A stretch of 41,325 nucleotides of DNA from a virus (taxonomy: Duplodnaviria > Caudoviricetes). The stretch lies in IMG/VR virus record IMGVR_UViG_3300035683_000204, positions 1-41,325 of that record. The stretch is one strand, 5' to 3'. Positions 10,536-31,201 of the stretch are shown here, piece after piece. Positions within the stretch are counted from its first letter, which is position 1. Each line of letters begins with the position of its first letter. Under the pieces are notes generated by a model. The model was not told where the DNA came from. It saw only the letters and a program-made list of their open reading frames with translations, and did no database searches. A program made the position numbers and the translations under genes.

Positions 10536-10542
10536 AGGAATG

Positions 10543-16041: not shown

Positions 16042-17810
16042 CCTCCAGTCCCAAAGCCCAACTGCTCGCCCATGCGGGGGACCTGCACCCCGCCGGCATC
16101 GTCAAAGAGTCCTTCGCGGCCGAGCGCGTCTTCCGCAGTCAGCCGGCCTGCATCCTTCGCCGGCGCCAGACTGGAGCACGCGGCGGTCACCTCTTCGAAC
16201 TGGCCCTCGCCGACGGTGAGGCACTGGTCGATGGCATCCCAGACGTCATCCTTGGGGTGCTGCCCATAGTAGGAGATCTGCTCCTTGGCCGCGGCAGAGA
16301 GCTCGTCGGAGAACAGGATCGTCTCCGACACGACGCCCCCCCGGCGCGACTTGATCCGCAGATCCTTGTCTCCCTTCGGTGGGCCGGCGACCAGGTTGAT
16401 TGTGACCTGTGCCGCGCGCGCCGCCTTCTGGAGATCCTCGTCATACGAGCTGAGGGCCACCTTCTCCACGCCGGCGAAGTGGATCCGCCTGAGCACGTGC
16501 CGCGCGATGATTGCCGACTGCACCTGGTCCGGCGGGAGCGCCTCGGCGAGCACCCACCGGACTACGCGGCGCCCGTCCCGGATAAAGTCGATCTCCACCA
16601 CGGCCGACGTGTCGCTGATGGTGGTGCCGCGCGACGGGTCCCAGAAGATGCCCGTGGCGAGCACGTCGTCTTCTGCGGGAAGCTCCTCCCTGGACCGGTA
16701 GTTGATCGTGGGGAAGTAGCTCCCCGCGGGGTCAAACGGATCGTTCTGCCTCTCCGAGAGGAAGCTGCCGAGGTCCTCAGCCCGCTCCGTCATGAGGCCG
16801 TACAGGGTGAACTGCTCCGGCCACAGCACCACCGCGCCTCGGTCCATCCGGGTGCGGTTCGCCACGTAGAACGCGCGCGCCGCCGCCTTCCGGTCCGGCA
16901 GGCTGCGATCGTGGTAGATGGCTTCCCACTCGCGCCACAGGCCGTCGAGCTCTTCCGGGTAGGAGACCAGGGCGCGGTGGATGTCCGCGTCGCTCTCCAC
17001 CTGGTGCTTTAGGAACGACTCGGCGTGGAGGATGGTGCCGACGATGATGTAGACCGCTGCGCGCCCGAGCTTCCGCACCACCTTGTTCCACCACGCCGCC
17101 TTCTTCCGCCGGCGCTTCGGGTTGTGGACCTCCTGGTCGTTCTCCAGGTCGTCTCCGAAGATCAGGTCCGGGCGGAAGCGCCTCCACCGGGCGCCGCGGA
17201 TCGCCTTGCCGCTGCCCGCCGCGGCGATCACGCACTCGGTCCCCAGCACCAGGAAGTTCACGCGCGGCTTCTCCAGGTAGACCCCCAGCTCGGGGTAGAC
17301 GGCCTGGAGCCGTTCGTTCGTGTCGATCTCGGTGCGGATGTCACTCAGGATCCCGCGCGCCTGGTCGCTGGTGTCGGAGGTGATCACCGCGAATCGCCTC
17401 AGCTGGTTGGCGGCCGCCCAGATCGCCGCCCACGCGGTACCCACCACCGACTTGGCGCACTCGCGGGGGTACGCCCGGGCAATGGTGTCCTCCTCGGTCT
17501 CGCCATGCACCAGCGCGGTAATGTCATCGGCGAGCTTGCGATGGAATGGGGCGCTCGCGATCTCCCGGCCCTTCCTGTCCTTCCGCCAGTCCTGCCCGAA
17601 GTACGTCCAGAAGAGCCAGTAGGAAGCGGCGAACTCGGCCTGGATCGCTTCCAGGGGCGCATCTTCGGGCAGCTCCAGGAACACCCGCGCGTCCGCCCGG
17701 ATCTCCTCCCGCGCTTCTTCCAGCGCCTCTTCATCACTCAGCTCCGGCGGAGCAGGCTCCGGCACCAGGTCATCAAGGGCATCGGAACCCGGAAAGCGGA
17801 TGACGCTCAA
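16032..17810 (-). CDS. terL: Terminase large subunit
   Basis: Walker A-like PRECAKS, RPDLIFGDDLE, VGTILH, nuclease WDPS and DDVWDA. TTG start at 17810 after GGGAGG. Confidence 0.92.
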   Translation of the reverse strand: MSVIRFPGSDALDDLVPEPAPPELSDEEALEEAREEIRADARVFLELPEDAPLEAIQAEFAASYWLFWTYFGQDWRKDRKGREIASAPFHRKLADDITALVHGETEEDTIARAYPRECAKSVVGTAWAAIWAAANQLRRFAVITSDTSDQARGILSDIRTEIDTNERLQAVYPELGVYLEKPRVNFLVLGTECVIAAAGSGKAIRGARWRRFRPDLIFGDDLENDQEVHNPKRRRKKAAWWNKVVRKLGRAAVYIIVGTILHAESFLKHQVESDADIHRALVSYPEELDGLWREWEAIYHDRSLPDRKAAARAFYVANRTRMDRGAVVLWPEQFTLYGLMTERAEDLGSFLSERQNDPFDPAGSYFPTINYRSREELPAEDDVLATGIFWDPSRGTTISDTSAVVEIDFIRDGRRVVRWVLAEALPPDQVQSAIIARHVLRRIHFAGVEKVALSSYDEDLQKAARAAQVTINLVAGPPKGDKDLRIKSRRGGVVSETILFSDELSAAAKEQISYYGQHPKDDVWDAIDQCLTVGEGQFEEVTAACSSLAPAKDAGRLTAEDALGREGLFDDAGGVQVPRMGEQLGFGTGGWS

Positions 17811-17865
17811 GATGCCTCCCAGACGCGCGCGACCCCCGCACCGGCCCACGAGCCGACGCAAGGCC

Positions 17866-17912
17866 GGATCGTGTGCGTAGGGCCGTTGCGCAACGTCGCG
17901 GCGGGCATTCCG
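17866..17912. promoter_or_regulatory. GGATCGTG-N11-GTTGCGCAACGTCGCGG motif upstream of terL
   Basis: Palindrome GTTGCGCAAC; the same motif and spacing occur inside both 96-bp inverted repeats. Confidence 0.6.
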
Positions 17913-17954
17913 GCGTTCATTCTCAACTTTTGGTGGGAGCCGGTGAGGAGGCGG

Positions 17955-18146
17955 TCAGATCGAGGGGTTCCGAAGCCAGATTGGCGCACAGGCCGGCAGA
18001 GGGTCAGCGGAGGGTTTGACTTCACCTGTCCACCCGCGGACGTCCGCGGCTTCCATCAGCTCGCGTCGCTCCTGGCAGGTGCAGCACGTGCACCCCACGC
18101 GGAGCGGGGGCAGCTCGGCCAGCCGCGCCGCGGCCGCCGGAGTCAC
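17955..18146 (-). CDS. Small Cys-rich hypothetical protein
   Basis: Start overlaps the terS stop; CTCCTC. Confidence 0.4.
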   Translation of the reverse strand: MTPAAAARLAELPPLRVGCTCCTCQERRELMEAADVRGWTGEVKPSADPLPACAPIWLRNPSI

Positions 18147-18580
18147 ACGGGCTCCTCGATCTCGGCGCGTCGCAGCTCCGCGCGCAGGTCCGCAAGGATC
18201 GTCTTGCGCCGGGCCTGGATCAGCGGAGCGAGAGCGGGCTCCCGCATCAGCACCACCAGCAGCCGCTCCGCCACACGCATCGGGTCCGGGTTGGGATCGC
18301 GGGGTGAGTCCAGGCCTGCCAGGCGGGCCATGGTGGCTGCGGCATACGCCTGCTGCGGGTCCGCCGACTCCCGCGCCGCCTGCGTCAGGCTGACCACCAG
18401 CTGAGCTGCTTCGCGCTCCAGCTGGCGGTTCCGCTCGCGGATCCCCGGCCAGTCATCCTCTCCTGACCAGCGCTGGAGCGTGGCCCGGCTGATGCCCAGC
18501 CTCTCCACGAGCCAGGTCAGGGAGCGGCCGGCGACGTACAGGTCGCGAGCTCGCGTGCGGTTGGAGAGGTCGTAGGCCAC
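18143..18580 (-). CDS. HTH protein, probable terminase small subunit (DUF1804-like)
   Basis: ARDLYVAGRSL...LGISRATLQRW...DDW; upstream of terL. Confidence 0.72.
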   Translation of the reverse strand: MAYDLSNRTRARDLYVAGRSLTWLVERLGISRATLQRWSGEDDWPGIRERNRQLEREAAQLVVSLTQAARESADPQQAYAAATMARLAGLDSPRDPNPDPMRVAERLLVVLMREPALAPLIQARRKTILADLRAELRRAEIEEPV

Positions 18581-18581
18581 C

Positions 18582-18737
18582 CTACGAAGCCGCGTTGCGG
18601 GCGGCCTCCACGAGAGCGCGCATCGCGGCGGTGCGCTGCCGGAGCACGGCAACGTTCACCTCCCCCAGCACCCGCTCCGCCCGGCGCCGAAGCGCCCAGA
18701 CGCGGACCCGCTGCGCCAGCTGGTGCACCGCGCTCAT
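18582..18737 (-). CDS. Small basic hypothetical protein
   Basis: 51 aa; GGAGG RBS; translationally coupled. Confidence 0.5.
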   Translation of the reverse strand: MSAVHQLAQRVRVWALRRRAERVLGEVNVAVLRQRTAAMRALVEAARNAAS

Positions 18738-18967
18738 TCCGGTCCTCCCGCGCGCAGCGCCATGGCCTGGCGCACGTGATCGAGCACGACGCCGAAATCG
18801 CCCTGCGCCTGCAGGTGCTCGCGCACCCACGTGTTCAGCTCGCGATTCTCCCTGTGGAGCACGTAGCACCAGCGGAGCACACCCAGGAGCACGCCAAGGA
18901 GAACCAGGGAGACGGCGACCTGGCTCTTGAGGACCGCCTCCCACGCGTGCAATTTCTCGGGAGTCAC
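18734..18967 (-). CDS. Single-TM membrane protein (holin-like), first late gene
   Basis: VAVSLVLLGVLLGVL followed by a coiled coil; start uncertain. Confidence 0.55.
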   Translation of the reverse strand: MTPEKLHAWEAVLKSQVAVSLVLLGVLLGVLRWCYVLHRENRELNTWVREHLQAQGDFGVVLDHVRQAMALRAGGPE

Positions 18968-19045
18968 GTCGGCGTTTGTCGAGGGGACACGGGAAGCGAC
19001 ACGGGGAGAGCGGCGGACGGCGCGGCGGCGGGCGGGAACGCAGGC

Positions 19046-19119
19046 GGGGCCGTGCTGCGCTTGCAGCACGGCCCCAAGGTAATTCGGCGCCGGGGGGAAG
19101 GTGGCGCCGTTGTCCAGGC
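19046..19119 (-). promoter_or_regulatory. Putative late promoter copy A with hairpin
   Basis: GCCTGGACAACGGCGCCACCT-N17-TACCTT then a 13-bp stem; heads the late operon. Confidence 0.75.
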
Positions 19120-19134
19120 GCGCAAAGCCTCCTC

Positions 19135-19182
19135 CACCGAATACGGGGGGCCGTCCGCTGGGACGGCCCCCCGTATTCGGTG
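19135..19182. terminator. Perfect 22-bp hairpin, probable terminator insulating the late operon
   Basis: CACCGAATACGGGGGGCCGTCC gctg GGACGGCCCCCCGTATTCGGTG. Confidence 0.7.
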
Positions 19183-19209
19183 CGTGTCGGCGGGTGCAGG
19201 CGCCGCTCC

Positions 19210-19518
19210 CTATCTGCCCCCAGCAGCGCGAAGCTCCCGGCGCACGCAACCTCTGTATAGCCAGTACGACCCCTCGCCCGTCGCGGTCGCCATGCGCGTG
19301 CAGTGCTGCGCGATGCGTGCGGGCACGGAGGGGGCGGCGCGCAGCTCTTCCTTCGACCGCGCCTCCCTCCGCATGCACCCGGCCTTCATTTCGTAGCTTC
19401 CGCCCGACGCGCGGGACATCAACTCGCAAAACCGCTCACTGTCGAACTTCGGCAGATCGCCCCCCTGCGCAGCACCGGCGAGCAAGAGAAGCGGCAGGGC
19501 GAACACACGTAGCTTCAT
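19210..19518 (-). CDS. Small secreted 4-Cys protein
   Basis: Signal peptide MKLRVFALPLLLLAGAAQG; internal repeat GSY...GC.RRE twice. Confidence 0.75.
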   Translation of the reverse strand: MKLRVFALPLLLLAGAAQGGDLPKFDSERFCELMSRASGGSYEMKAGCMRREARSKEELRAAPSVPARIAQHCTRMATATGEGSYWLYRGCVRRELRAAGGR

Positions 19519-19624
19519 GGCGACCCCGTGAAGGTGGAGAGCGGCGGCACGGCGGCACAGCCCCAAGGTAAAGCGCCAGGCGGGCGGGCGGAACAGGATC
19601 GTTCCGCTGACCTGCCGAGCGCGC

Positions 19625-19972
19625 CTAGTTCGGCTTCCCCGACCCCGGCAGCGCGGGGTTCACCACTTCGTTCACGAGCCGTTGGAAGGCGAGCGCCTTC
19701 CAGTGCGGCGGCACGCGCGCCATGTGCTCCGGGCGGGACACGTCGAACGGCTCCCCGTCCACCTCAACCCCGTCCACCCCGCGGATGCGGTCCTCGAAGA
19801 ACCCGGGCAGGAGGGACGCGAAGAACTTCAGCCGCATCGTCTCCCCCTCCCCCTCGCGGTCCATCGTCTCCTGCAGCTTGAAGTATTGTTCGTCGGTGAA
19901 CGGCGCGAGCCGGAGCGTGGCGCCCCCCTCTACGGTCACGGTCAGCTCTTCCCGGTGTGGCAGCTTCAGCAT
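19625..19972 (-). CDS. Second tail assembly chaperone G (paralog; no GT extension)
   Basis: Aligns with 6817-7233 (VEGG, TD.QYF, REGEG, VDG.PFDV, RVP.HWKALAF); AGGAG RBS. Confidence 0.9.
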   Translation of the reverse strand: MLKLPHREELTVTVEGGATLRLAPFTDEQYFKLQETMDREGEGETMRLKFFASLLPGFFEDRIRGVDGVEVDGEPFDVSRPEHMARVPPHWKALAFQRLVNEVVNPALPGSGKPN

Positions 19973-20041
19973 ACGCGTTCTCCTGTCTGGTGGATGGTGT
20001 GCGGGGGCGAGGCAGCGCGCCCCCCCCGCGGCGGAACGGGC

Positions 20042-23000
20042 TTATTTCACCCTGCGGTATCCCCCGACGTTGGGGATGCGGACCTGCGCATCCTGGCGGG
20101 CCCTCCGCCCCAACGCGTACTGGATTTCCTCAATCGTCTCCCCCGACTCGGAAATGATCTGGATTTTCACCACGTCGGGCCCTTCCTTGCGCGCCGTCTT
20201 TGCGAGCGCCGCCGACTCGTAATCCGCCACCACCACCCGCTGCGGCTCCCGGTTCCGCTCCCGCTGGCCGAACAGGCTCCCGATCAGCCCGCCCAGCACG
20301 CCCACGCCCGCGCCCAAAATCGGGTTGATCTGGGTGGCGGCGGCTTGCGCAATCGACGCGAGCCCCTGGACGACCGCGGCCTCCATGCTGGCGCTGCCGC
20401 TGATGGCCGCCTGCACCATGTTCCCGAACGCCTGCACCACCAGCACCCCCGCCCGGTCGAATTCGTCCGACCCCTTCCCGATGGCGACGGCGTACTCTTC
20501 CGCGGAGCGCCCGGCCCCCCGGATGATCCCTTGCAGGGCGTCCAGGTCCGCGGCGCCCAGCTTCGCCGGGTCGATCCGCAGCCCCGCCGCCGCCTCGTAC
20601 TGGCGCTGCGCGGCCCGGCGGTCCAGGGCCTCCACCCGGGCCGCCCCCAGGCCCCGCGTGCTCACGTCCACCCCGCGGGCGGCGTCCAGCCCGGCCGGGG
20701 CCAGGAAGGGCGTCAGGTCGGTCCGGCGGAGCCCCGACAGCCCGCCGTGAATGGTCCCGAGCTGGACCACCACCTCCGCAAGGTTCCCGCGGAGCCGGTA
20801 CACCTGTTCGTTCAGCTCCTTGAAGGCGTCCCCGCCGCGGGGGAGCCGCGTCAAGGCCGCTTCCGCGGTGGCGACTTCCACCGTCACGCTCGCCAGCGTG
20901 GCGCTGGCCCGCTCCCGCAGCTCCGCCAGGGCGCGCACCCCGTCCGCGGTGCCGATCCGCGCGAAGCCTTGGTCGGGGCCGACCACCTGCAGGGGCGTTT
21001 TCTTCCGGCCGCGGGGTTCGTCGTCCCCGAAGTCGAAGGGCGGGAGGCGCGGCGGACCGGGGGCCGGAGGCCCCGTCACCACGGAGCCGTAGAGCCCCTG
21101 CAGCTCCGCGTTGCGGCGCACGGCATCCGCGTACTTGTCGCGGGCGGCATCCAGCAACGCGTCTACGCCCTCTATCTCGGACCTGATGCGCGCGACGCTG
21201 GCGCTCTGCGCCTGCGCCACGCTCCCGAAGATGTCTGCTGTCCCCGTGCTCCCCACACGCGCCACGACGCGGGCGGCGTCCGCCGCCAGCTTCGCCCGCC
21301 TGCCCTCTAGCTCCTCTATCTCCAGCTCCGCGTCGAGCTGCGCCTGCTGCACCCCCCCAAGGCTCATGTCCCGCAGCGCCACCCGGAAGTCTGCGGCGGC
21401 ACCCTGCGCCCGGCGGGCGGCGTCCTCTGCGCTGTCGCCCGCGTGCGCGAACGCAGATGCCACGGCGGTCAACCCAACCACAAGCGGCGCGCCGATCCCA
21501 ACGATCAGCAGCAGCCCGCGCGCGGCCGTCGCCACCCCGAACACGGCCGTTGACGTGGCGACGGCCGCGGACCGCACCGCTACCGTCGCATGGGCCACGG
21601 AGGCGAGCCCCGCGGCGGCGGGCCCCGCAACGGTTACGATCCCGCCCAGCACCAGCACCGTCGTCTGGACCGGCCCCGGCAGCTCGGTGAACACGCCCAC
21701 GGCGCCGCGCGCGATTTCCACCACGGGGCGGGACGCTTCCAGCACGTCCACCAGGGCGGGCGCCAGCTCCGCGCCCAGCTCCACCGCCAGCACCGCGGCT
21801 TCCGACGCGGCCTGCTTGAACTGATACCCGTCCGTCTCCTGTAGGCGCTTGAAGGCGGCGTCGAGGATGCCCGCGGAGCCCTGGATGCTGGCGGCGACCT
21901 TGGCAAACTCCTCCCCTTGCAGCCCGGCCGTCCCCAGCACGCCGACCAGCCCTTCCACGTTCGGAATCACCCGCGCAAGCGCATCCTCGTTGCCTTTGAA
22001 GCGGGCCGTCAGCTCCAGCAGGCTTTGGGACAGGCCCTTTTCGCGCACTTCCTCCCGCAGCGCCGCCGCCGACAGACCGACCTTACGGAGCACCTTTTCG
22101 GCATCGTCCGACGGGTTGAGCAGGGTTTGCAGGTACGACCGGAGCCCCGTCACGGACGCGGACGCATCCCGGTTGACGCGCGAGAAAGAGGCGATGAACG
22201 ACCCCACCTCTTCAAAGGAGACCCCCATAGACGCGGCGACCGGGAGGACTTGCCCCAGGCTCCCGGCGAGCTGCGACACCTCGAAATTTCCTTCCCGCGC
22301 CGTCGCCACCATGATTTCGGTTGCGCGGCGCGCGGACAGGTTCGACGCGGCATACGCCTGCATCGCCGCTGTCGTGGTGCCCGCGATGGTGTTCACCTCG
22401 CCCAGCCCCAGCGCGGACGCCTTTGCGGCGTCGGACAGCACGTCCAGGGCTTCCGCGCCCCGCTCGCCGCCGCTGGTGACGGTGAACAGCCCGCGCGCCA
22501 GCTCCGCGGGCAAGGCGCCCAGCTCCGGGGCCATCTCCACCACGGCGGCCCGCCATGCGTCTACCTGATCCCGCGACACCCCCACCAGGGTTTCGATGCG
22601 GGTCATGGAGCTGTCGAAGTCGGTCGCCATGTGGACCGCCGCGCCCCCCGCCGCCACCAGCGGGAGCGTGACGCGGGTGGAGAGCGTGCCGCCGATCTGT
22701 TCCAGGCGGTCCGCGGCGCGGTCGGCACGTTCCGCGAGCCCCGCCACCTTCCGGCCCGCCGTCTCCGATGCGTCCCCCGCCGCCTCCACCCCGCGGGCCG
22801 CGGTGCGGGCGCCGTCGCCCAGCGCGATGAACCGGCCCCGCGCGTCCCGCACCCGCCCGTCCAGGCCGACGACCCGCTCCCCGGCCGCACCGGCGACGCG
22901 CGAGACTTCCACCACCCCGGCGGCGCCCGTGCGCCCGGCGGGCCCCAGCGCGGACAGGTCGTCCCGGAGCCCCGCGGTGGCGGCGCCGTCCGCGGCGGCG

Positions 23001-23221
23001 GCCACCACCTGAACCGACCCCGCCAGCTCCCGCATTGCGCGGCCCGCCGCGTCCAGCTCCGCGGCATCGACCGCGAGCGGGCCGAAGTCGGCGCCCGCGG
23101 CGCCGCTGGTGGCGGCGGTCAGCTCCGTCTGTGCGGTGCGGATCGCGGTGTAGGCGGCGACCACTTCGGGGGCGCCACGCGACGTGACGACGATTTCTAT
23201 TTCGTTCGTAACCTTGGTCAC
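20042..23221 (-). CDS. Second full-length tape measure protein (TMP2)
   Basis: 1059 aa, colinear with TMP1 (VTNEIE; LRSYLQTLLNPSDDAEKVL; ALARVIPNVEGLVGVLGTAGLQ; RKEGPDVV...VRIPN). Confidence 0.95.
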   Translation of the reverse strand: MTKVTNEIEIVVTSRGAPEVVAAYTAIRTAQTELTAATSGAAGADFGPLAVDAAELDAAGRAMRELAGSVQVVAAAADGAATAGLRDDLSALGPAGRTGAAGVVEVSRVAGAAGERVVGLDGRVRDARGRFIALGDGARTAARGVEAAGDASETAGRKVAGLAERADRAADRLEQIGGTLSTRVTLPLVAAGGAAVHMATDFDSSMTRIETLVGVSRDQVDAWRAAVVEMAPELGALPAELARGLFTVTSGGERGAEALDVLSDAAKASALGLGEVNTIAGTTTAAMQAYAASNLSARRATEIMVATAREGNFEVSQLAGSLGQVLPVAASMGVSFEEVGSFIASFSRVNRDASASVTGLRSYLQTLLNPSDDAEKVLRKVGLSAAALREEVREKGLSQSLLELTARFKGNEDALARVIPNVEGLVGVLGTAGLQGEEFAKVAASIQGSAGILDAAFKRLQETDGYQFKQAASEAAVLAVELGAELAPALVDVLEASRPVVEIARGAVGVFTELPGPVQTTVLVLGGIVTVAGPAAAGLASVAHATVAVRSAAVATSTAVFGVATAARGLLLIVGIGAPLVVGLTAVASAFAHAGDSAEDAARRAQGAAADFRVALRDMSLGGVQQAQLDAELEIEELEGRRAKLAADAARVVARVGSTGTADIFGSVAQAQSASVARIRSEIEGVDALLDAARDKYADAVRRNAELQGLYGSVVTGPPAPGPPRLPPFDFGDDEPRGRKKTPLQVVGPDQGFARIGTADGVRALAELRERASATLASVTVEVATAEAALTRLPRGGDAFKELNEQVYRLRGNLAEVVVQLGTIHGGLSGLRRTDLTPFLAPAGLDAARGVDVSTRGLGAARVEALDRRAAQRQYEAAAGLRIDPAKLGAADLDALQGIIRGAGRSAEEYAVAIGKGSDEFDRAGVLVVQAFGNMVQAAISGSASMEAAVVQGLASIAQAAATQINPILGAGVGVLGGLIGSLFGQRERNREPQRVVVADYESAALAKTARKEGPDVVKIQIISESGETIEEIQYALGRRARQDAQVRIPNVGGYRRVK

Positions 23222-23300
23222 GGCGCGCCGGGGAGCGGGGGAAGTGCGGAGCCCCGCGGGCGGCGGGGAGGCGGCGCCCGCGGGGGCGCGCGACCGGTGG

Positions 23301-23344
23301 AAGGTACGCGCGCGGAAGCGGCGGCGTGGCGCGCCTGTCCAGGC
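23301..23344 (-). promoter_or_regulatory. Putative late promoter copy D upstream of TMP2
   Basis: GCCTGGACAGGCGCGCCACGC-N17-TACCTT; same spacing as the other copies. Confidence 0.7.
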
Positions 23345-23422
23345 GACGGCGGGGAGGGGCGGCGGCAGGCCGCAACCGGCTGGGGATGCCGGAGGCGAGG
23401 GCCGCAGGCGGGCCGTAGACCC

Positions 23423-23518
23423 GCCCCGCGACGTTGCGCAACGGGGTTGGGGGCACGATCCCCGCCGACCCGCGGCGGGACGACACCCCCGGAGCAGATC
23501 GGGGCTTGTGGCGCGATT
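23423..23518 (+). repeat. 96-bp inverted repeat, left copy
   Basis: 88/96 identical to the reverse complement of 27842-27937. Confidence 0.92.
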
Positions 23519-23520
23519 TC

Positions 23521-23700
23521 GGGGACCGGAATTCGCCCCCTTGAGACACTCATCGCGTGTTGGAACCCGCCCTTGAGAGGCGGCTCGCGGGTCTACGCCG
23601 CCGCCTTACTGGCCGGACAGCTCGCCGCAGGGCGTTCCCCGCCCCTCTTTGCCAACGCGAGAATATTGCGGGCCGCGTTCACGTCGCGGTCCAGCCGGAG
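23521..23700 (-). ncRNA. Putative TnpB omega/reRNA (5' boundary approximate) with candidate guide 23540-23521
   Basis: Two hairpins after the tnpB stop ending in GTGTCTCAA, resembling an IS200/IS605 right end. Confidence 0.55.
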
Positions 23701-24732
23701 CCCGCACTCCTCACACTGGTGGACGCGCACCTTGAGCGTCTTGCGCTTCGCGGGCGCGTATCCGCAGCCGGAGCACATCTGAGACGTTCCGCCAGGGTTC
23801 ACCGCCACCACCACGCGGCCGGCGCTTTCAGCCTTGCCACGCAGGATTTCGAGGAACTGGCACCACCCGGCGTCATACACGCTCTTGCGGAGCATGCCGC
23901 GGGAGAGGCCGCGGAAGTTCAGCGCTTCAACGGCAAGGAAATCGTAGCGCCGCACAAGATCGCGTGCGGTCTTGAAGTGGAAGTCACGCCGGGCGCTCCG
24001 CACGTAGCGGTGCACCCGCGCCAGCGTCCGGACCCGCGCGCGGAAGCGGGCCCCACCTAGCTTCGCCTTCCTCATCCGCCGGTTTGCACAGGCCAGCCGA
24101 GCGGCGGCGTGCTGCGCGAACCTGGGATTCTCCACCGTGTCCCCATCCGACGTGGCGAGGAACGACGCAAGCCCGAGGTCGAGCCCGGCGGCGGCACCCG
24201 TCGCGGGGAGCGGGCGCGGCTCCACCCCGTCGCAACAGAACGTGACCCACCAGTCCCCGCACCGATCCCGCTTGAGTGTGACGCTCTTCACCTTCCCTTC
24301 CACCGGACGGGAGAGGAACAGGCGGAGCGTACCAATGCCCGCCAGCGTGAGCCGCCGCCCTTCTAGGGTCCACCCGGTCTGCCGGTACGTGGTGGAGTCA
24401 TACCGGCCCTTGCCTTTGAAGCGGGGATAGCCGGGCGCCTCGCCCCGCTGGGCACGTTCGAAGAACGCCTTGAAGGCCCGGTCGAGATAGCGGAGCGCGG
24501 CGTGGGTCGCCTGGCAATCCAGGGCGCGGTACTCGGGATCGGCGCGCCGAATCTCCGTGATCTGGGCCGTCTGACCGGCGTAGGTGACAGTCACTCGGCT
24601 CTTGGCCCACGCATCCCGTCGCTCCTGAAGCGCAGCGTTGTAGAGCTGGCGCAGTAGCTCAAGCTGGCGCTCCGCGTTGCGGAGAGTCGAAGGGCTCATT
24701 CGAGCAACCTTGTACTTGAAGCTGCGGCGCAT
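23593..24732 (-). CDS. tnpB: TnpB RNA-guided endonuclease (IS200/IS605 family)
   Basis: YNAALQER, GYPRFK, RuvC GLDLG / AVEAL / DRDVNAARNI, Zn finger CSGC..CEEC. Confidence 0.96.
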   Translation of the reverse strand: MRRSFKYKVARMSPSTLRNAERQLELLRQLYNAALQERRDAWAKSRVTVTYAGQTAQITEIRRADPEYRALDCQATHAALRYLDRAFKAFFERAQRGEAPGYPRFKGKGRYDSTTYRQTGWTLEGRRLTLAGIGTLRLFLSRPVEGKVKSVTLKRDRCGDWWVTFCCDGVEPRPLPATGAAAGLDLGLASFLATSDGDTVENPRFAQHAAARLACANRRMRKAKLGGARFRARVRTLARVHRYVRSARRDFHFKTARDLVRRYDFLAVEALNFRGLSRGMLRKSVYDAGWCQFLEILRGKAESAGRVVVAVNPGGTSQMCSGCGYAPAKRKTLKVRVHQCEECGLRLDRDVNAARNILALAKRGGERPAASCPASKAAA

Positions 24733-24769
24733 CGGGTCACGGGGGCGGTTCGGGTCCGGCGGCTGGGGG

Positions 24770-24833
24770 TGTCTCCCCTGCTTGTATATATCATAATAGA
24801 CGGGCGGGGCGTTGTCAGCCCCCGCATATACAA
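24770..24833 (-). promoter_or_regulatory. Sigma70-like promoter/operator for tnpB
   Basis: CTGACA-N17-TATGAT flanked by TTGTATAT / ATATACAA half-sites. Confidence 0.75.
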
Positions 24834-24849
24834 GCCGGGGGGGGTGCCG

Positions 24850-25071
24850 CTAGTCGGAGAGGGTGCGGGCGAGCTTCTGTAGGTCGGCGGCGCGGGTCCG
24901 GGCCAGGTCAGAAAGAACCTTGCGCCAGTTGGCCGGGGGGTCTCGGCGGCTGGGGTTGTCGGGGGGTAGTTTCGCCTGTCGAATGAGCTGGAGCGACACC
25001 CCGGCGGCGTCCGCGATTTCTTGGTCTGTGGTGCACCGCTTCAGCTCTGCGGATGCGGCCTTGAAGTCCAT
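24850..25071 (-). CDS. Small HTH (Xre/Cro-like) regulator
   Basis: DQEIADAAGVSLQLIRQA; 73 aa. Confidence 0.8.
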   Translation of the reverse strand: MDFKAASAELKRCTTDQEIADAAGVSLQLIRQAKLPPDNPSRRDPPANWRKVLSDLARTRAADLQKLARTLSD

Positions 25072-25076
25072 CGGAA

Positions 25077-25140
25077 TTGTATATGCTAGGGTTGACGGCG
25101 GGGTCCCTGTCTATTATCTTATATACAGGCAGGGGAAACA
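25077..25140 (+). promoter_or_regulatory. Sigma70-like promoter/operator, mirror copy of the tnpB promoter
   Basis: TTGACG-N17-TATCTT; 49/64 identical to the reverse complement of 24770-24833. Confidence 0.75.
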
Positions 25141-25259
25141 GCAAGGCTGACCGCACACCCGCCAAGATGTCACGGCCAGCCTTGCCCCCAACGCGACCCG
25201 AAGGCCGCACCGAAAAGGTGCCCCCTGCCGCGGCTCGGGTCAAGGTCAGGAGACCGAAC

Positions 25260-25868
25260 ATGGTACGTGCCGCAGACGCCGCCACTGCCGCCGCCGCCGC
25301 CGCCGCGCTGGCCCCCGCGTTCCCCAAGGCAAGCGTCTATCACTCTCAGCTCGTCGGGCGCGGCCCGCTCTGCATCCGCCTGACGGCCGGTGTGATCCCA
25401 AGCAAGTTCAAGGACAAGCCCGCCTTTGCCCCCTTCCAGGTCCGCGGCGACACGGCGGAGTATCGCCTGACGGTCGAGAACGACACGATCCGCGAGCGGC
25501 TTGCCTCGCTCCCGCTGAACACCTGGGTGGAAGTGCAGGCCGCCGGGAGCCGGGACGCTGCCACGCTTGAAGTGCTGCGCATGGCCCCGCAGCGCACCCC
25601 CACGGCGCGCCGGATGGACGCGGGCGCGGCCGGGCCGGGCGAGTCTCCCGCGGGCGCGGCGGCCCCTGCGCCGTCCAGCCTGGAAAACGAATACTGGACC
25701 GCGCTGGAAGCCGCGGTGCGGATCGTGGGCGACTTCCAGCGGCAGTTCGGCCGGGAGCCCAGCGAGGCAGAGCGGGCCATCGCCTGCACGCTCTGGATTC
25801 AGGCCAACCGCGAGCGCGACGGGCGCCCGCTGGCGGCGCCGCGCCCGGCCCCGCGGGGGGGCCGGTGA
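25260..25868 (+). CDS. Hypothetical protein (beta-rich domain, linker, helical C-terminal domain)
   Basis: AGGAG RBS before ATG 25260; 202 aa. Confidence 0.7.
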   Translation: MVRAADAATAAAAAAALAPAFPKASVYHSQLVGRGPLCIRLTAGVIPSKFKDKPAFAPFQVRGDTAEYRLTVENDTIRERLASLPLNTWVEVQAAGSRDAATLEVLRMAPQRTPTARRMDAGAAGPGESPAGAAAPAPSSLENEYWTALEAAVRIVGDFQRQFGREPSEAERAIACTLWIQANRERDGRPLAAPRPAPRGGR

Positions 25869-26077
25869 CGCCCCGGCAGATCCACGCGGCAATGCGCCGG
25901 GCGGTTCGCGTGGTCATGAAAGCCCAAGTCACCAAAGCCGGGGGCGTAGCCCCCGGCCCGTTCCAGATCCCCGGCGAATTCTTCTCCCCGCACGCCTGGA
26001 ACGCGGCGGTTCGGGCGGAAGAGGAACGGGCGGCGGAGCGGCGGCAGCGGGAGCGGTACTTGGGCAGGGCTGGCTAA
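25865..26077 (+). CDS. Small hypothetical protein
   Basis: GTGA overlap with the upstream stop. Confidence 0.55.
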   Translation: MTPRQIHAAMRRAVRVVMKAQVTKAGGVAPGPFQIPGEFFSPHAWNAAVRAEEERAAERRQRERYLGRAG

Positions 26078-26157
26078 TTTCGTGGGACTGGCGGGCCGCG
26101 GTGGCTGAATCTATACTCCGTGAGCCTGCCGGTTCCCCGCCTTGCACTCTTCCGACA

Positions 26158-27462
26158 ATGAGCGGTCACATGGACCAATCCAACAACACCCCGTCCACGG
26201 GCGGCGGCTCTCCTGACGCCCGCGCCCTCTACGTGCGCAGCTCCGGGCCGCCGCCCGTCGCGGGGAGCTTTGACGGCTCGGCAATTCTTGAAGAGGTGGC
26301 GGAGCCGTTGGGGGTGGTGCTGTTCCAGGCGGCGCGGGACGGGCTCCTGTGGGCGACCGCCGCACCGGGGGAGCGGGCTGGGATCTTCGCACCGCGGGCG
26401 CGACTGCCCCGCCTGGACGGATACCGCGGGCTGCGGGGGGCGCTCCATCCCTTCGTGCGGATGGTGCGGAAGCCCCGCGAGACCGACCCGGCGGAGCTGC
26501 TGGAGGCTTCGGGGCAGGTGTGCGAGTGGGCGGAGCACCGGGGGCACCTGCGGACAGCGGGGGCGTTCGCGGAGATTGCCGCCCGCCTCTTCCCTTCGGA
26601 CGGGGCGCTCGCCGTGCGGGTCGGCCAGTTCGCGCGGCGCGCAGCCGACTACGGGCGGGCCGAAGCGTGGCTCGGGTGGGCCAACGTACTCGCCCGGCGC
26701 GCGGGGGACTGGCGGACCTACTGCACGTCGCTGGCTGCGCTCGGCAATCTGCACTGGCAGCGTGGCAACTACCCAAAGGCGTGGCGGCGGCAGGCGCAGT
26801 GCCTTCGCCGGGCGCGGCTGCTGGGCTTGCGCGACTTCCAGGCGTCGGCGCTGCACAACCTCTTTGCCCTGTCGGTGGAGATGGACGACTTCCAACAGGC
26901 GGAGACGTACTACAAGGCCGCTTTCGAGGTGTACGGACCGACGCACCCGCGCATGCCGTACTTTGCGCATGACGTCGCCTGGTTCTACATGCTCCGGGGC
27001 CACAACACGGCGTCCATACAGATCCTCAAGGCCCTGCTCTCCCACTTCCAGAAGCCGACCGACCAGCTTCTCGTATGGGGGGGGCTGGCGCGAACGGCGG
27101 CCGGGGCGGGACGGCGGGAGCTGTACCGGCAGGCTCGCGGCGCCGTGTGGGACATCGTGCGGGAGCATGGGAACGCGGAGCACGCGGCAACGGCGCTGCT
27201 GGACGCGGCGCGCGGAGCGGAGGCGCTTCGGGACTGGCATGACTGCCGTGTGCTGGCCGAAGCCGCGCTCGGGATTGCGCAGATCCGGGGGGAGGGGAAA
27301 GTCTCGCTCTCTGCCGAGGCGCTGGTGAGGATGGCCCGCATCGGCCTAGCGCCGGGTGCCGTGGCGGGCGGGGCGCACGCCGGGGAGGTGGTGGCGGGCG
27401 CGCAGCCGGAGACGTGGACGGGGCCGCTCCTGACCCGCGAGATCGTCAGGGCGCTGCGGTAG
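26158..27462 (+). CDS. TPR-repeat protein (RRNPP-receptor-like candidate)
   Basis: Helical repeats LAALGNLHWQRGNYPKA, ALHNLFAL..DDFQQAETYY, AHDVAWFYM; start 26158 or 26170. Confidence 0.8.
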   Translation: MSGHMDQSNNTPSTGGGSPDARALYVRSSGPPPVAGSFDGSAILEEVAEPLGVVLFQAARDGLLWATAAPGERAGIFAPRARLPRLDGYRGLRGALHPFVRMVRKPRETDPAELLEASGQVCEWAEHRGHLRTAGAFAEIAARLFPSDGALAVRVGQFARRAADYGRAEAWLGWANVLARRAGDWRTYCTSLAALGNLHWQRGNYPKAWRRQAQCLRRARLLGLRDFQASALHNLFALSVEMDDFQQAETYYKAAFEVYGPTHPRMPYFAHDVAWFYMLRGHNTASIQILKALLSHFQKPTDQLLVWGGLARTAAGAGRRELYRQARGAVWDIVREHGNAEHAATALLDAARGAEALRDWHDCRVLAEAALGIAQIRGEGKVSLSAEALVRMARIGLAPGAVAGGAHAGEVVAGAQPETWTGPLLTREIVRALR

Positions 27463-27489
27463 CTGGCGGAAAGCCGGGGGCGGGCATTC

Positions 27490-27525
27490 AGGCGGCGGGG
27501 GCGCGATGCGCCCCCGCCGCCTTTT
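27490..27525 (+). terminator. Rho-independent terminator between the convergent TPR and peptide genes
   Basis: AGGCGGCGGGGGCGC gat GCGCCCCCGCCGCCT TTT. Confidence 0.8.
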
Positions 27526-27529
27526 CGTC

Positions 27530-27733
27530 CTACGCCTTCGTGGAATCCGGTGCCGCGGCTCCGTTCGACGTGGTGCTGTCGGGTTCGTTCTTGTGCCCGG
27601 AGCCGAACAGGCCGCTGTTCTCATTGCGCCGGTCGCCAGGTGCGGCGGTGTCCGGCGCGGTGGAGTCGGAACAGGCCGCCGCCACGGCGGCGCAGATCAG
27701 CAGGGCGACGGCGACGGTGCGAGTTGCTTTCAT
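27530..27733 (-). CDS. Small lipoprotein / secreted pro-peptide
   Basis: 67 aa; AGGAG RBS; signal peptide with lipobox AAAC; embedded SGLFGSGH. Confidence 0.8.
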   Translation of the reverse strand: MKATRTVAVALLICAAVAAACSDSTAPDTAAPGDRRNENSGLFGSGHKNEPDSTTSNGAAAPDSTKA

Positions 27734-27841
27734 GGTAGCGGGCTCCTGAGATGGGGAGGGTGGATAGCGGGACCGGGCGGCCCCGCGTCTCCAAGATAGC
27801 CGGTGGGGCCGCCCGCGGCCCCCCGCGCGCCGCCCCCTCAG

Positions 27842-27937
27842 AATCGCCCCACAAGCCCCGATCTACTCCGGGGGTGTCGTCCTGCCGCGGGTCGGCGGGG
27901 ATCGCGCCGCCTACCCGGTTGCACAACGTCGCGGGGC
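27842..27937 (-). repeat. 96-bp inverted repeat, right copy
   Basis: Partner of 23423-23518. Confidence 0.92.
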
Positions 27938-27953
27938 CATTCCGTCTCCGGAG

Positions 27954-28355
27954 TCACGTGCCCCCGCCGACGATCCCGATCTGTCCCAGCTCCACCCTGA
28001 CCTCCTCGGCGTGCCGCTGCGCCCGCGCGATCCGCACGTCCTCCGCGGTCTCCAGCTCCCGGCGGCGCGAGTCCCGCAGCGTCCGGTCAAGCTCTACCCG
28101 CCGGAGGATCAGCTCGTCGGTACGGCTGCGCAGCTCCCGGAGGTCGGCTTCGTGCGGGCTGCGCGCGGAAGGGTCGTAGTGGATCAGGTCATCGGCGCTG
28201 TTGACGAACAGCTCCAGCTTCGCCGACACCATTCGGTGCTCGTCGCGGGTGTCTCCGTCGATCTGCGCGCAGATCCGGCGGATCAGGGCGCGCGCGCCGT
28301 CCTCCAGCGCGAACAGCTCCTCGCGCAGCTTGCGCAGGGTGGCGTTCTCGTTCAC
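27954..28355 (-). CDS. Hypothetical coiled-coil protein
   Basis: 133 aa, Glu/Arg/Leu-rich; coupled to the upstream ORF. Confidence 0.65.
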   Translation of the reverse strand: MNENATLRKLREELFALEDGARALIRRICAQIDGDTRDEHRMVSAKLELFVNSADDLIHYDPSARSPHEADLRELRSRTDELILRRVELDRTLRDSRRRELETAEDVRIARAQRHAEEVRVELGQIGIVGGGT

Positions 28356-28888
28356 GAGGGCTCCAGGGCGGGAACGGGGGGAGAGGTCCCGGCGGCGGGG
28401 TCCTCGGCAGGGGGGCGAATCTCACACATCTCGCGGGCGGCCAGTTCCAGGAAGAGGCGGACGATCAGGCGCGCCACGCTCTCGCGCACACTCAGCTGCA
28501 CCAGCACGAACGCGACGGGGCGGGGCAGCACCCGCGACACCTCGCGCACCAGCACCGTCCGGAGGGCCCTGGCACCGCCAGCTTCCTGGAGCAGCTCCCA
28601 GACGATCTCCTCCGAGAGTTCCATCCGCTCCGCCGGCCCCGGGCTCCACCACGCCAGCCGCACGAGGGTGGGCGCGAGCACCAGGTCCCGGACAGCGGCC
28701 CACATCTCGCCCAGATCGCGCTCCTCAAGCGGCCTGCCCGGGAAGAAGAAGCCGGTGTCCTGCCGCAGGAGGGCCGCCAGATCGGCCGTGGTGTCCAAGC
28801 GGAGTTTCCCCGGGCACGTCACCAGCGTCGCGACGTTCAGCTGCCGCACCCGAGTGCCAGAATGCTCTTTCGCGTGAACCGCCGACAT
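28352..28888 (-). CDS. Hypothetical protein (start uncertain, 28888-28942)
   Basis: Open frame downstream of promoter copy B. Confidence 0.55.
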   Translation of the reverse strand: MSAVHAKEHSGTRVRQLNVATLVTCPGKLRLDTTADLAALLRQDTGFFFPGRPLEERDLGEMWAAVRDLVLAPTLVRLAWWSPGPAERMELSEEIVWELLQEAGGARALRTVLVREVSRVLPRPVAFVLVQLSVRESVARLIVRLFLELAAREMCEIRPPAEDPAAGTSPPVPALEPS

Positions 28889-28984
28889 CGCGGTTGCAGG
28901 GTGCAGAGGAGAGCACCCAGCCGGGTAGCAGCTGGTGGACATCGCGTCGTATGTCGGGGGGAGACTTCAGGCCGGAATGCAGAC

Positions 28985-29058
28985 GGGGCCGTGCTGCGTC
29001 AGCAGCACGGCCCCAAGGTATTGTCTCGGCGCGCCTGAGGTGGCGCCGTTGTCCAGGC
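28985..29058 (-). promoter_or_regulatory. Putative late promoter copy B with hairpin
   Basis: Identical to copy A except for the hairpin loop and the 17-nt spacer. Confidence 0.75.
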
Positions 29059-29068
29059 GCTTCGCCTC

Positions 29069-29719
29069 CTACTCCATTTGGAGACTCACGAGTCCCCAGC
29101 TTTCATCGCTCGCCTGGTATTGAACGGTGCAGTCGAAGTTGCTCCGGAGCTTTGCACCGAAAGAGTTTTCCGCGTCCACAGAGGCTCTCACTTGGTACCT
29201 GCCGCTGCCAACGTGAGCCACGTGATCGGAGTAGACACCCGGGAAGTCAGCCGTGCCGGGGGCTTTAAGCCGTCGGCTCACGAAGTCCTGGCACGCCACC
29301 CATGCTCCGACCGCGGTGCCATTGATTCGAGCCTCCGCACTCGATCCGCCCGCAGAATCATCGCCTCCCCCCAAGGCAGCGAACAACACCATCACCCCAA
29401 GCAGCCCGAGGCAGCCGATCCCGCACCCCTTCGCGGCATTGCTCTTTTGCTGCTGTGCTGTAGCAGCGGCCGCTTGCACGGCGCGGGACCTCTCGCCGGA
29501 AGGATCCGGAGCCCCGCACTGCGGGCAGGTCAGCGCATCAGTGCTCACCTGGTGCCGGCACACGCGGCATGGTGCCAGGCGCGGGGTCCCTGGGATGGGG
29601 GTCGCCCCGGCAGCTGCGAGACTCCCCACGCCGGCGGGGTCCGCTGCACCGCAGTGGCTACACCTGGGATCCCGCGTACTGACTGCGCCCCCACACTCTC
29701 GGCAGATCGCAACGGCCAT
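29069..29719 (-). CDS. Double zinc-ribbon membrane protein
   Basis: Four CxxC pairs, TM GCGIGCLGLLGVMVLFAAL, C-terminal LKAPGTADF...VDAENSFGA. Confidence 0.8.
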   Translation of the reverse strand: MAVAICRECGGAVSTRDPRCSHCGAADPAGVGSLAAAGATPIPGTPRLAPCRVCRHQVSTDALTCPQCGAPDPSGERSRAVQAAAATAQQQKSNAAKGCGIGCLGLLGVMVLFAALGGGDDSAGGSSAEARINGTAVGAWVACQDFVSRRLKAPGTADFPGVYSDHVAHVGSGRYQVRASVDAENSFGAKLRSNFDCTVQYQASDESWGLVSLQME

Positions 29720-29723
29720 GGGC

Positions 29724-30332
29724 TCAAGCAGCTGGTGATAGGCCGGGAGCGCCCCCTGCGGCTTCCATCTCGCGCATGCGTCGCGCTACAACCCGGGCGT
29801 CCACTCGAAACTCGGTCGCGAACCACTGTACCACCCCGTCCACCTCCCGCATCTCCCACAGCACCGCCTCGGCCTCAGCTGAAAGCACCGGCCGCTTCCT
29901 GAGTCCCAGCGCCCTCGCCTTGTTGCGCACCCGATCCGGTGAGCATCCCAGCTCGGCGGCGATCTCCGGCATCGAGGCATGCGGCCAGCGATCCACCAGG
30001 AGGCGCTCCGCGGGCTCGCTCCAGTGGTACTCGGCGGTCAGCTCCAAGACCTGCATTCGGGCCTGCACAGCCTGCGCGGAGCGACCCAGACCGCGGCCGA
30101 TCTCCTTCGCAGTCAGCCTCCCTCGCTGCTCGACCAACACGCTGTCCTGCTCAGCAGTCCACCGCGGCAGCACCGCCAGCTTGAGCACCCGGGCCCGTTC
30201 GTTGAGCGCCGCCACCGTGCGTCCCAGGTGACGGGCGATAATTGCCGTGCGGCGCACACCGTAGGCACGGGCGAGCAGCGCGTCATCCCGATCGCTCCAC
30301 GGGATCCGTCTCGGCTGGCTCATCAGCGTCAT
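29724..30332 (-). CDS. Tandem Myb/SANT-like HTH repeat protein
   Basis: Repeats WSDRDDALL, WTAEQDSVL, WSEPAERLL, each followed by IA..LGR-type helices. Confidence 0.75.
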   Translation of the reverse strand: MTLMSQPRRIPWSDRDDALLARAYGVRRTAIIARHLGRTVAALNERARVLKLAVLPRWTAEQDSVLVEQRGRLTAKEIGRGLGRSAQAVQARMQVLELTAEYHWSEPAERLLVDRWPHASMPEIAAELGCSPDRVRNKARALGLRKRPVLSAEAEAVLWEMREVDGVVQWFATEFRVDARVVARRMREMEAAGGAPGLSPAA

Positions 30333-30847
30333 TCGCCTTCCTCCGGGACCTCCACGAACCGGCGCTCCAGATCGTAGAGCTCTGGTGGTATTGGCCGACG
30401 CAGATCTATCGCCGTTTTCTTGACTGCGGTGATCAACGCCAGCGCCACAATCCTTCGCTCCTCCCCACTCACATTCCCAATCAGCACCTCCATCATCCGC
30501 TGCAATCGCGGATTATGGCTCCCAAAGAAATCGAGCAGGTCCTCCTCGGGCGACCGCTCCGGGCGATACCCCGCTGTAGCTTCTGATACCTTTCCTACAC
30601 CCTTCCTGTCGGTAGTTCTGTAAACTTGCTGTTCGGCCGTTTCGGAAGAAGAGCCCCCATCCAACCACCTAGCGACTTGCTCCCGTGTTTTCTGGCGCGG
30701 CTCTGCAGTCGACCCGTCCAACAGACTTAGTAGCGCTGGCCGAGAGATACCGATCTCGCGAGCAAGCAGCTCGGGAGATTTGCGCGACTCCTCCACACGC
30801 TTCTGTAGTCGTTGGCGCAGCCCAGTCCAGGGAGGAGCGTCGGTCAC
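30329..30847 (-). CDS. Prophage repressor (Xre HTH)
   Basis: LAREIGISRPALLSLLDG; GTG 30847 abuts the operator; divergent from the early operon. Confidence 0.8.
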   Translation of the reverse strand: MTDAPPWTGLRQRLQKRVEESRKSPELLAREIGISRPALLSLLDGSTAEPRQKTREQVARWLDGGSSSETAEQQVYRTTDRKGVGKVSEATAGYRPERSPEEDLLDFFGSHNPRLQRMMEVLIGNVSGEERRIVALALITAVKKTAIDLRRPIPPELYDLERRFVEVPEEGE

Positions 30848-30903
30848 CTGTAACCTTACAGAAAGTTGCTTGACAGGCGGGTGCCCATGCTGTAACCTTA
30901 CAG
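30848..30903 (+). promoter_or_regulatory. Immunity switch: two CTGTAACCTTACAG operators and early promoter TTGACA-N17-TAACCT
   Basis: Identical 14-bp palindromes at 30848-30861 and 30890-30903; -35 at 30870-30875. Confidence 0.88.
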
Positions 30904-30905
30904 CG

Positions 30906-31172
30906 ATGGTTAAATCTTTCACTACACCCGAACACATAATGCACTTCACCGAAGGCGATTTCAAGAAGCTGCTTGTCGATCTCGGCCTGAGGCCCATCGA
31001 CGTGGCCCGCGCCATCGGCAAGGCGCCGAACACTGTCACGTACTACTTCCGTGGACGGCTGAAGAACTCGGGCACTCGGCTGGCCATCAAGCGTGTGCTG
31101 AGGGACCGGGCGCGGATAGTCGGGGTCGCGCTCCCCGAGTTCTGGAAGGACACCAGCGCCCGCTCGCGCTGA
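30906..31172 (+). CDS. Ner/Cro-like HTH protein
   Basis: DVARAIGKAPNTVTYYFRG; first early gene (alternative start 30938). Confidence 0.8.
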   Translation: MVKSFTTPEHIMHFTEGDFKKLLVDLGLRPIDVARAIGKAPNTVTYYFRGRLKNSGTRLAIKRVLRDRARIVGVALPEFWKDTSARSR

Positions 31173-31175
31173 TCG

Positions 31176-31201
31176 GGCGACGGCCAGAACGGCCGTCGCC
31201 C
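31176..31201 (+). terminator. Hairpin after ner/cro (terminator or antitermination site)
   Basis: GGGCGACGGCC agaac GGCCGTCGCCC. Confidence 0.5.

Follow-up and report, generated by a model that had tools for sequence, protein, structure and literature searches.

A tnpB gene without a recognisable left end behind a predicted phage promoter: a candidate homing nuclease in a Mu-like prophage

Introduction

The locus described here is a tnpB gene in the provirus record IMGVR_UViG_3300035683_000204 (41,325 bases, completeness 56%), the whole of which we call the window, and it is compared with its closest described relatives. For ISDra2 TnpB of the IS200/IS605 family (PDB-codes: 8bf8, 8exa, 8h1j), the RuvC triad and the zinc finger have been described, the RNA scaffold measures 116 nucleotides (nt), and bases -6 to -2 pair with the stem-1 loop to form a pseudoknot that precedes the guide (PMC10097598). 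IS1341-type elements carry tnpB only and take their guide from the right flank, and cutting of the vacant site followed by recombination is a described role of TnpB on chromosomes and plasmids (10.1101/2023.03.14.532601; PMC11870625). About 25% of tnpB genes have a tnpA nearby (10.1101/2023.03.14.532601), and 89% of TnpB clusters are immobile (PMC10691335). Induction of a phage-borne tnpB during infection has been described for a cyanophage (10.64898/2026.02.14.705889).

We propose, with a probability of roughly 55%, that the window locus is an immobilised remnant of an IS200/IS605 (IS1341-type) element in a Mu-like prophage, and that it encodes a predicted RNA-guided homing nuclease acting against the DNA of sibling phages that lack the insertion. 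The locus shares with IS1341-type elements the single tnpB gene and the right-flank guide, and the proteins are 53-65% identical. In contrast to ISDra2, it has no tnpA and no recognisable left end, its right-end hairpin is shortened and followed by CCAA, its scaffold is only about 85 nt long, and its transcription is predicted to start from a phage promoter. The nearest complete IS1341-type example, locus L187, has kept both ends and can be mobilised in trans, whereas the window copy has no room for a left end. With TldR the locus shares the prophage location, the absence of tnpA and the lack of an identifiable left end; TldR proteins, however, have a dead RuvC site, conserved partner genes and promoter-matching guides, while the window protein has an intact RuvC site, no target found and no conserved partner shown (10.1101/2023.11.30.569447). 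Our literature search found no paper on an active TnpB without a left end under the operator of a phage repressor; most subscription journals and supplements, such as the Additional Files of PMC10691335, which may list such loci, lay outside its scope.

The tnpB gene and its omegaRNA

The tnpB product matches PF01385 (OrfB_IS605) and PF07282 (Cas12f1-like_TNB) in Pfam, with no match to the N-terminal HTH_OrfB domain, and it matches ISDra2 TnpB in the PDB with an E-value of 4.6e-45. We aligned it with 29 of 120 listed homologues (58-65% identity). The three RuvC residues and the four cysteines of the CCCC zinc finger in the TNB domain (Table 1) are invariant in 30/30 of the aligned proteins. 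The gene is real and its catalytic residues are intact, and nuclease activity is predicted. An earlier annotation made from the DNA letters only, hereafter the sequence-only reading, had noted the intact RuvC site and zinc finger as well as the absence of a tnpA gene, and both observations hold: profile searches in six frames of the record found no Y1 transposase, with controls for Y1 and serine recombinases positive in 6 and 12 of 14 genomes, and no serine recombinase (IS607-type tnpA, PF00239; 0/1 record). Membership in the IS607 family was rejected because the record encodes no serine recombinase. Identity as a Type V CRISPR-Cas (Cas12f-like) protein was rejected because no CRISPR array adjoins tnpB: the 20 largest repeat families shown include none with regular spacing, and an Rfam scan gave no CRISPR family.

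Table 1. Coordinates of the features of the tnpB locus in the window
Feature	Position	Strand	Remarks
tnpB, 379 amino acids	23593-24732	-	RuvC D185/E269/D350; zinc finger C320/C323/C340/C343
omegaRNA scaffold	23560-23645	-	overlaps last tnpB codons; covariance model; sole significant copy in window
Scaffold stem 1	23644-23630	-	scaffold alignment
Scaffold stem 2	23628-23625 paired with 23590-23587	-	scaffold alignment
Stem-1 loop	23635-23639	-	GGGAA; its nucleotides 2-5 (GGAA) predicted to pair with TTCC 23565-23562 (pseudoknot)
Right-end hairpin (stem 4), shortened	23567-23583	-	preceded by GAGC; GAAT or GAAG in canonical relatives
Element end, CCAA	23560-23563	-	pseudoknot rule and covariance model
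Predicted guide	23540-23559	-	first 16-20 nt of flank, begins CACGCGATGAGT; no target found
Earlier candidate guide	23521-23540	-	beyond predicted guide; self-folds as short hairpin
Gap between tnpB ATG and promoter repeat, 37 nt	24733-24769	-	no left-end hairpin, no Shine-Dalgarno match
Repeat copy a	24770-24833	-	CTGACA (24818-24813), 17 nt, TATGAT (24795-24790); flanking boxes TGTAT/ATACA; faces tnpB
Repeat copy b	25077-25140	+	TTGACG (25092-25097), 17 nt, TATCTT (25115-25120); faces divergent genes
73-amino-acid helical protein, predicted helix-turn-helix	24850-25071	-	between copies a and b; candidate repressor of both
First divergent gene, 202 amino acids, no family	25260-25868	+	look-alikes mostly viral hypothetical proteins; context, outside element

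The end of the element was placed by two routes. For the first, we selected from loci L001-L187 those that carry, beyond the last conserved motif of the protein, a hairpin whose loop has 5 nt, and that also match a second, independent pattern for the canonical right end; once duplicates were merged, 35 remained. In 27 of these 35 canonically ended relatives, bases 2-5 of the loop pair with the tetranucleotide that precedes the final AA or AC, whereas 2000 shuffles averaged 11.5 such loci and never exceeded 19. The window has 10 downstream sites at which AA or AC comes next; pairing with the loop is 4/4 only for TTCC+AA, which ends at 23560; the partners are GGAA and TTCC here and mostly GGCA with TGYC in the relatives. 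The resulting geometry is the same as that reported for ISDra2 (PMC10097598). For the second route, a covariance model was built from 16 relatives with the window excluded. All its 88 positions align to 23645-23560 (E-value 1.8e-10), it stops at the CCAA at 23563-23560, and it finds no second significant scaffold in the window. At this locus it is the pseudoknot, and not the nearest TCAA, that marks the omegaRNA end. The sequence-only reading had placed the right end at TCAA, a motif that is present at 23544-23541, but its TCTC+AA pairs only 3/4 with the stem-1 loop and the end has to be moved to CCAA.

Could the element nevertheless end at TCAA 23544-23541, with the RNA beyond it pairing with the tnpB leader (24737-24757) or guiding TnpB to it, or with the two segments being decayed terminal inverted repeats? 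The stretch 23544-23523 resembles 24737-24757 in inverted orientation, though imperfectly, and no other match of the flank in the window scores higher (score 22); clear inverted repeats around tnpB (score at least 30) occur in 6 of 141 loci examined. We give this explanation very little credence, since shuffles reach scores of up to 24 and three unrelated sites score only one point less than 22, the RNA duplex is equalled in 188 of 1000 shuffles and in 613 of 3290 segments of the window, and the covariance model and the pseudoknot both end at 23560. Leader-flank self-targeting and inverted repeats were rejected as being at chance level. A DDE-associated or solo TnpB between terminal inverted repeats, an arrangement known in principle (PMC10691335), was rejected as well, because the best inverted match falls short of the shuffle maximum and lies outside the scaffold end.

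In 12 aligned scaffolds the three helices, comprising 13 pairs, are formed in 156/156 cells, and 9/13 pairs have changed on both sides. The rows of L114 and L186, here and in the alignment behind the covariance model, and the row of the window, here only, are not independent, because the pseudoknot rule was used to fix their ends. The window scaffold keeps the pseudoknot and stem 2 by means of its own compensatory changes. On the other hand, the right end that would face a transposase is altered, with GAGC in place of GAAT/GAAG, a hairpin of 6 base pairs and CCAA in place of TCAA, and the element has no canonical right end (GAAT/GAAG, hairpin, TCAA/TCAC). This pattern suggests that the RNA stayed functional as the motifs facing the transposase diverged, although these changes could predate the arrival of the element in the phage. 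The minimum-energy fold of 23500-23670 is no better than that of shuffled sequences (z 0.29), which is expected because the RNA is pseudoknotted.

Two observations on other loci concern the same structures. Locus L185 carries a second omegaRNA scaffold upstream of tnpB at 753-843, besides the one at 2000-2089 (E-value 8.9e-11). Terminal inverted repeats enclose the viral tnpB in L002, L004, L007, L012, L014 and L142 (more weakly in L010, L011, L013, L017 and L018), and by eye the right inverted repeat of L002-type loci also supplies the omegaRNA end.

The left side of the element

The 37 nt between the tnpB start codon and the adjacent repeat contain no left-end subterminal hairpin; in L187 (53% identity), the nearest relative with a full upstream region, left-end hairpins lie 81 and 164 nt upstream. 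With no tnpA, no recognisable left end, a shortened right-end hairpin and a changed terminal motif, the element looks immobilised. It is probably no longer a transposase substrate, because there is no room for a left end and because the right-end motifs have changed; the pairing rule of the element ends that underlies this argument is one that we assume to hold here.

What occupies the place of the left end is an inverted repeat of 64 nt with 77% identity, the two copies of which lie 243 nt apart (Table 1). Each copy contains one sigma-70-like promoter facing outwards, and these are the only two in 23000-28200 (0.2 expected); the composite promoter box is found at these two places in the window and nowhere else in it (0.00 expected). 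The sequence-only reading had seen a single promoter/operator shared with the divergent operon. Predicted promoters are indeed found there, but as two inverted copies rather than one shared site, and the gene for a 73-amino-acid helix-turn-helix protein between the copies was absent from that reading. This protein has 219 relatives and no Pfam match; Gemmatimonadota are commonest among its look-alike clusters, and 40 members of the family show scattered weak matches to phage helix-turn-helix and repressor families. Its structural model consists of four helices, is all-helical with a helix-turn-helix, and has a predicted local distance difference test score of 98. The structural neighbours are XRE, Cro and Aca-type proteins, none of them significant (best Foldseek E-value 0.59; template modelling score 0.54 for Aca1), and no match in the fold search reached an E-value of 0.001 or better.

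A homologue of the regulator (E-value 1.5e-28) is found in the phage locus L207. There, the same box with a near-consensus promoter lies directly upstream of the regulator homologue, at the start of the gene, and agrees with copy b at 32/51 and with copy a at 29/51 bases (maxima of 28 and 27 in 300 shuffles), which is also above the best match in 18 background tnpB loci. Downstream of the homologue follow head genes and no tnpB. Because the same box precedes a regulator homologue in a phage free of tnpB, we regard the box as a phage regulatory module; it is likely to be the cognate operator-promoter of this regulator family, with tnpB sitting behind a second copy. A scan with the box pattern returned L207 only and is circular, as the pattern was built from L207, and 4/5 matches of a regulator motif were discarded as not belonging to the regulator family. 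By eye, a further site at 3740-3768 (minus strand) of L207 reads TTGACA, 17 nt, TAGTCT leftward behind the regulator homologue, below the scan threshold; it may be the trace of an older promoter facing leftward, at the place that corresponds to copy a.

In a lambdoid immunity region the repressor gene lies between pL/OL on one side and OR/pR on the other. The window arrangement is similar in that two related operator-promoters are predicted to face outwards around a small repressor gene. It differs in that the regulator is a single-domain protein of 73 amino acids and in that the Mu-type repressor/ner region of the prophage lies elsewhere, at about 30.3-31.2 kb.

A small DNA-binding protein beside tnpB, predicted to repress the tnpB promoter, also recalls the IS605 elements in which Arc represses the tnpA/tnpB promoters from within the element (10.64898/2026.09.24.754181). 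The regulator and tnpB could accordingly form one mobile unit, a helix-turn-helix counterpart of the Arc-bearing elements with its left end beyond the regulator gene, and by eye small DNA-binding genes precede several viral tnpB genes. The chance of this is slim. Arc is a ribbon-helix-helix protein encoded inside the element, whereas the model of the window regulator is all-helical with a helix-turn-helix and its phage family is not otherwise linked to tnpB: among all loci compared, the regulator profile matches only the window and L207 and none of the 187 tnpB loci (0/187), the other member found (L207) is without tnpB, and copy b is predicted to drive the divergent genes as well.

The second copy of the box bears on a different alternative, namely true domestication, in which the prophage keeps a regulated nuclease against a competitor phage or a host locus, the guide is untied from the insertion site, and the promoter copy arose to drive tnpB. 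L207 has a single box copy, so that copy a may have come along with tnpB or been formed to serve it. Moreover, the second tape-measure gene, which is next leftwards of tnpB, has its own promoter-like motif at 23341-23301, and copy a therefore appears to serve tnpB alone, which is the best point in favour of recruitment. Enzyme and scaffold are intact, and the weak likeness of the regulator to small XRE/Aca-type repressors given above points in the same direction. We nevertheless hold domestication to be quite unlikely: no target and no second phage with the same flanks were found, and a quick tree of 83 proteins gives no supported domesticated clade, the window TnpB grouping with P0010 and P0011 and not with the end-remodelled L114 or L186.

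Relatives of the locus

The tree comprises 75 homologues of the window protein, including TnpB of the window itself, and 8 loci; the careful tree search is unfinished and many forks are open. Since the window TnpB does not group with L114 or L186, repeated stranding of such genes is weakly favoured as the simpler reading. The close relatives are ordinary elements: both ends are present in L187, and L184 (56% identity) has a canonical right end. The closest viral relative, L114 (64% identity), is a complete 46-kb phage with tnpB in an early operon. Its tnpB begins where a small early gene ends, at the stop codon of the latter, no left end is seen by eye, and its right end has a short hairpin and CCAA followed by a fragment of an open reading frame. 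A scan of GTDB returned 80 distant loci (32-53% identity) and a metagenome scan 4 loci.

How common are such loci? The comparison covered 133 different related loci for which 1 kb or more of upstream sequence is available. Absence of tnpA is the rule among them: in 106 no Y1 gene lies closer than 1 kb (62/79 viral loci and 44/54 loci from genomes), and both Y1 and the canonical right end are absent from 38/79 viral against 13/54 genomic loci. These counts rest on a home-made profile and a rough search pattern and leave out serine recombinases.

Guide and target

Because the scaffold ends at 23560, the guide is predicted to run from 23559 to about 23540, and the candidate guide of the earlier annotation lies 19 nt too far downstream. 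The earlier statement that the 20 nt after TCAA have no match in the window stands, while their role as the guide does not. For both guides, the best foreign match in the window is 14/20, with seeds of 8 nt (corrected guide) and 10 nt (earlier guide). As regards a TldR-like guide complementary to a promoter, the window gave no match beyond 8-9 seed bases. In the L114 genome, its own guide has matches with 2 mismatches only. As the left end is missing, the target-adjacent motif (TAM) is unreadable from the locus.

Several results weigh against our preferred interpretation, in addition to the two points on copy a. The first 15 nt of the corrected guide have 16 exact matches in IMG/VR, of which 0/16 extend past 15 nt, and these share no common upstream motif. 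The 261 nt around the element end gave 16 weak matches in 50,697 phage records, and none of the 15 listed covers either guide. No empty allele was found: in the contigs of one run, which may be the source of the stretch, a single record was found over 23380-23700. Single-protein scans with the regulator and with the 202-amino-acid divergent protein found no syntenic phages, and the order of events proposed below is thus conjectural. A Shine-Dalgarno match is absent from tnpB (+0.1 kcal/mol), as it is from MuA. Finally, the left-end pattern is insensitive, with hairpins in L187 but in 0/5 other canonically ended loci; because it missed these five, the missing left end rests on lack of room and not on the pattern. 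Among the rows shown for the contigs of this run over 17000-32000 and 23380-23700, no joint or loose end falls at the element end; such contigs show the presence of the stretch, not its absence. The stretch is contained in this run only, and no RNA dataset is listed with it.

These searches give some room to a neutral relic, that is, a recently stranded and functionless insertion in which the gene is intact as little time has elapsed and the promoter is left over from a replaced, deleted gene. The failure to find a target or an empty allele in the sequences searched would fit such a relic, as would the single occurrence (the TnpB cluster has 2 members, from the same contigs), the absence of a Shine-Dalgarno match, and the 38/79 related viral loci that lack both Y1 and a canonical right end. 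However, the window scaffold differs from those of canonical relatives at the pseudoknot, at stem 2 and at the right-end hairpin, yet every pair has been kept, and we consider a relic unlikely.

Proposed mechanism

For the homing nuclease proposed at the outset, we regard the following course of events as the likeliest. An IS1341-type element would first have entered to the left of the regulator gene; its left end and the adjacent TAM would then have been lost in a deletion, leaving tnpB 37 nt from the repeat. Copy a, predicted to be repressed by the regulator, would fire when the regulator is absent or low, on entry into a new cell or on induction, and one transcript would carry tnpB, scaffold and guide. 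The guide would correspond to the old insertion flank, so that the natural target would be the TAM followed by 23559-23540 in an unoccupied sibling. After a cut at this vacant site, either the occupied copy would serve as the repair template or the sibling would be lost. Through such recombination the insertion would spread or persist, as is described for TnpB on chromosomes and plasmids.

The sequence-only reading had set targeting of an element-free allele against an ordinary insertion. TnpB, however, normally cuts alleles that lack the element. Finding an empty allele would thus verify the target and, by the same token, reveal an ordinary insertion, so that the two readings collapse into one. 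As to its further claim of a regulated nuclease rather than a passive insertion sequence, the element does look immobilised and sits behind a predicted phage regulator promoter; the part concerning domestication is not supported: neither a target nor a second phage with synteny was found, and nothing pointed to selection since the element became immobile.

As it stands, the locus is a further tnpB-only phage remnant, now with a corrected guide, and largely shows the ordinary fate of such genes, while the family of the 73-amino-acid regulator gains a candidate operator. A bolder idea, which we offer tentatively and think unlikely to be right, is that the phage copied the operator-promoter of its small repressor and so placed a catalytically active TnpB under burst-then-silence control, as in anti-CRISPR operons, making it a regulated, RNA-guided and transposase-free weapon or gene drive in competition between phages. 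If true, TnpBs that lack a left end in the early operons of phages would form a class that recurs under selection and would not be debris. Phages would then recruit active TnpB as regulated RNA-guided homing or exclusion nucleases, an intermediate stage linking transposon TnpB to the TldR and Cas12 systems carried by phages.

Genomic setting and other features of the window

The phage is of the transposable, Mu-like type, with a MuA-like gene at 33072-34718 and a MuB-like gene at 36807-37967. Terminase, portal, capsid and tail genes run leftwards from about 18.6 kb, and the tnpB locus belongs to an accessory block between the structural and the early genes. The host is probably a bacterium of the Gemmatimonadota, because a homologue with 58% identity to the window TnpB is named from Longimicrobiales and because look-alike clusters of the regulator are most often from Gemmatimonadota. 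At the MuA position, integrase-core (rve) matches occur in two successive open reading frames (33072-34718 and 34728-35201). The only Rfam match in the window is a weak one to tRNA-Sec at 10461-10536 (minus strand; 32.7 bits, E-value 0.0086), below the gathering score, and ARAGORN found no tRNA.

The second tape-measure gene (20042-23221) is full-length, encodes 1059 amino acids and is 49% identical to that of the tail operon (3353-6643). It lies outside the structural operon with a promoter-like motif of its own, and after it, at 19625-19972, follows a paralogue of 6817-7233, which stands beside the first tape-measure gene (77% DNA identity over 230 nt). This module could be a tail-length variant or an assembly-interference module. 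The motif TGGACA, 29 nt, TACCTT occurs at 10576-10616, 19076-19116, 23301-23341 and 29015-29055 (minus strand), and partially at 19570. The four full copies have a fixed spacing and lie upstream of leftward genes, two of them being followed by a perfect hairpin; they are probably activator-dependent late or middle promoters.

An inverted repeat of 96 nt (23423-23518 / 27842-27937, 92%) brackets a 4.3-kb block that includes tnpB, and a third, partial copy (17866-17901) immediately precedes the large terminase; the shared core is a near-palindrome. The repeat is possibly promoter/operator-like or an inversion substrate, and no recombinase was found. Transposon ends were rejected for it in view of the third partial copy and because no target duplication was seen. 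Within the bracketed block, a tetratricopeptide repeat protein of 430 amino acids (26170-27462, plus strand) converges on a 67-amino-acid peptide with a lipoprotein-like signal sequence (27530-27733, minus strand), an arrangement that presumably resembles a peptide-receptor signalling pair.

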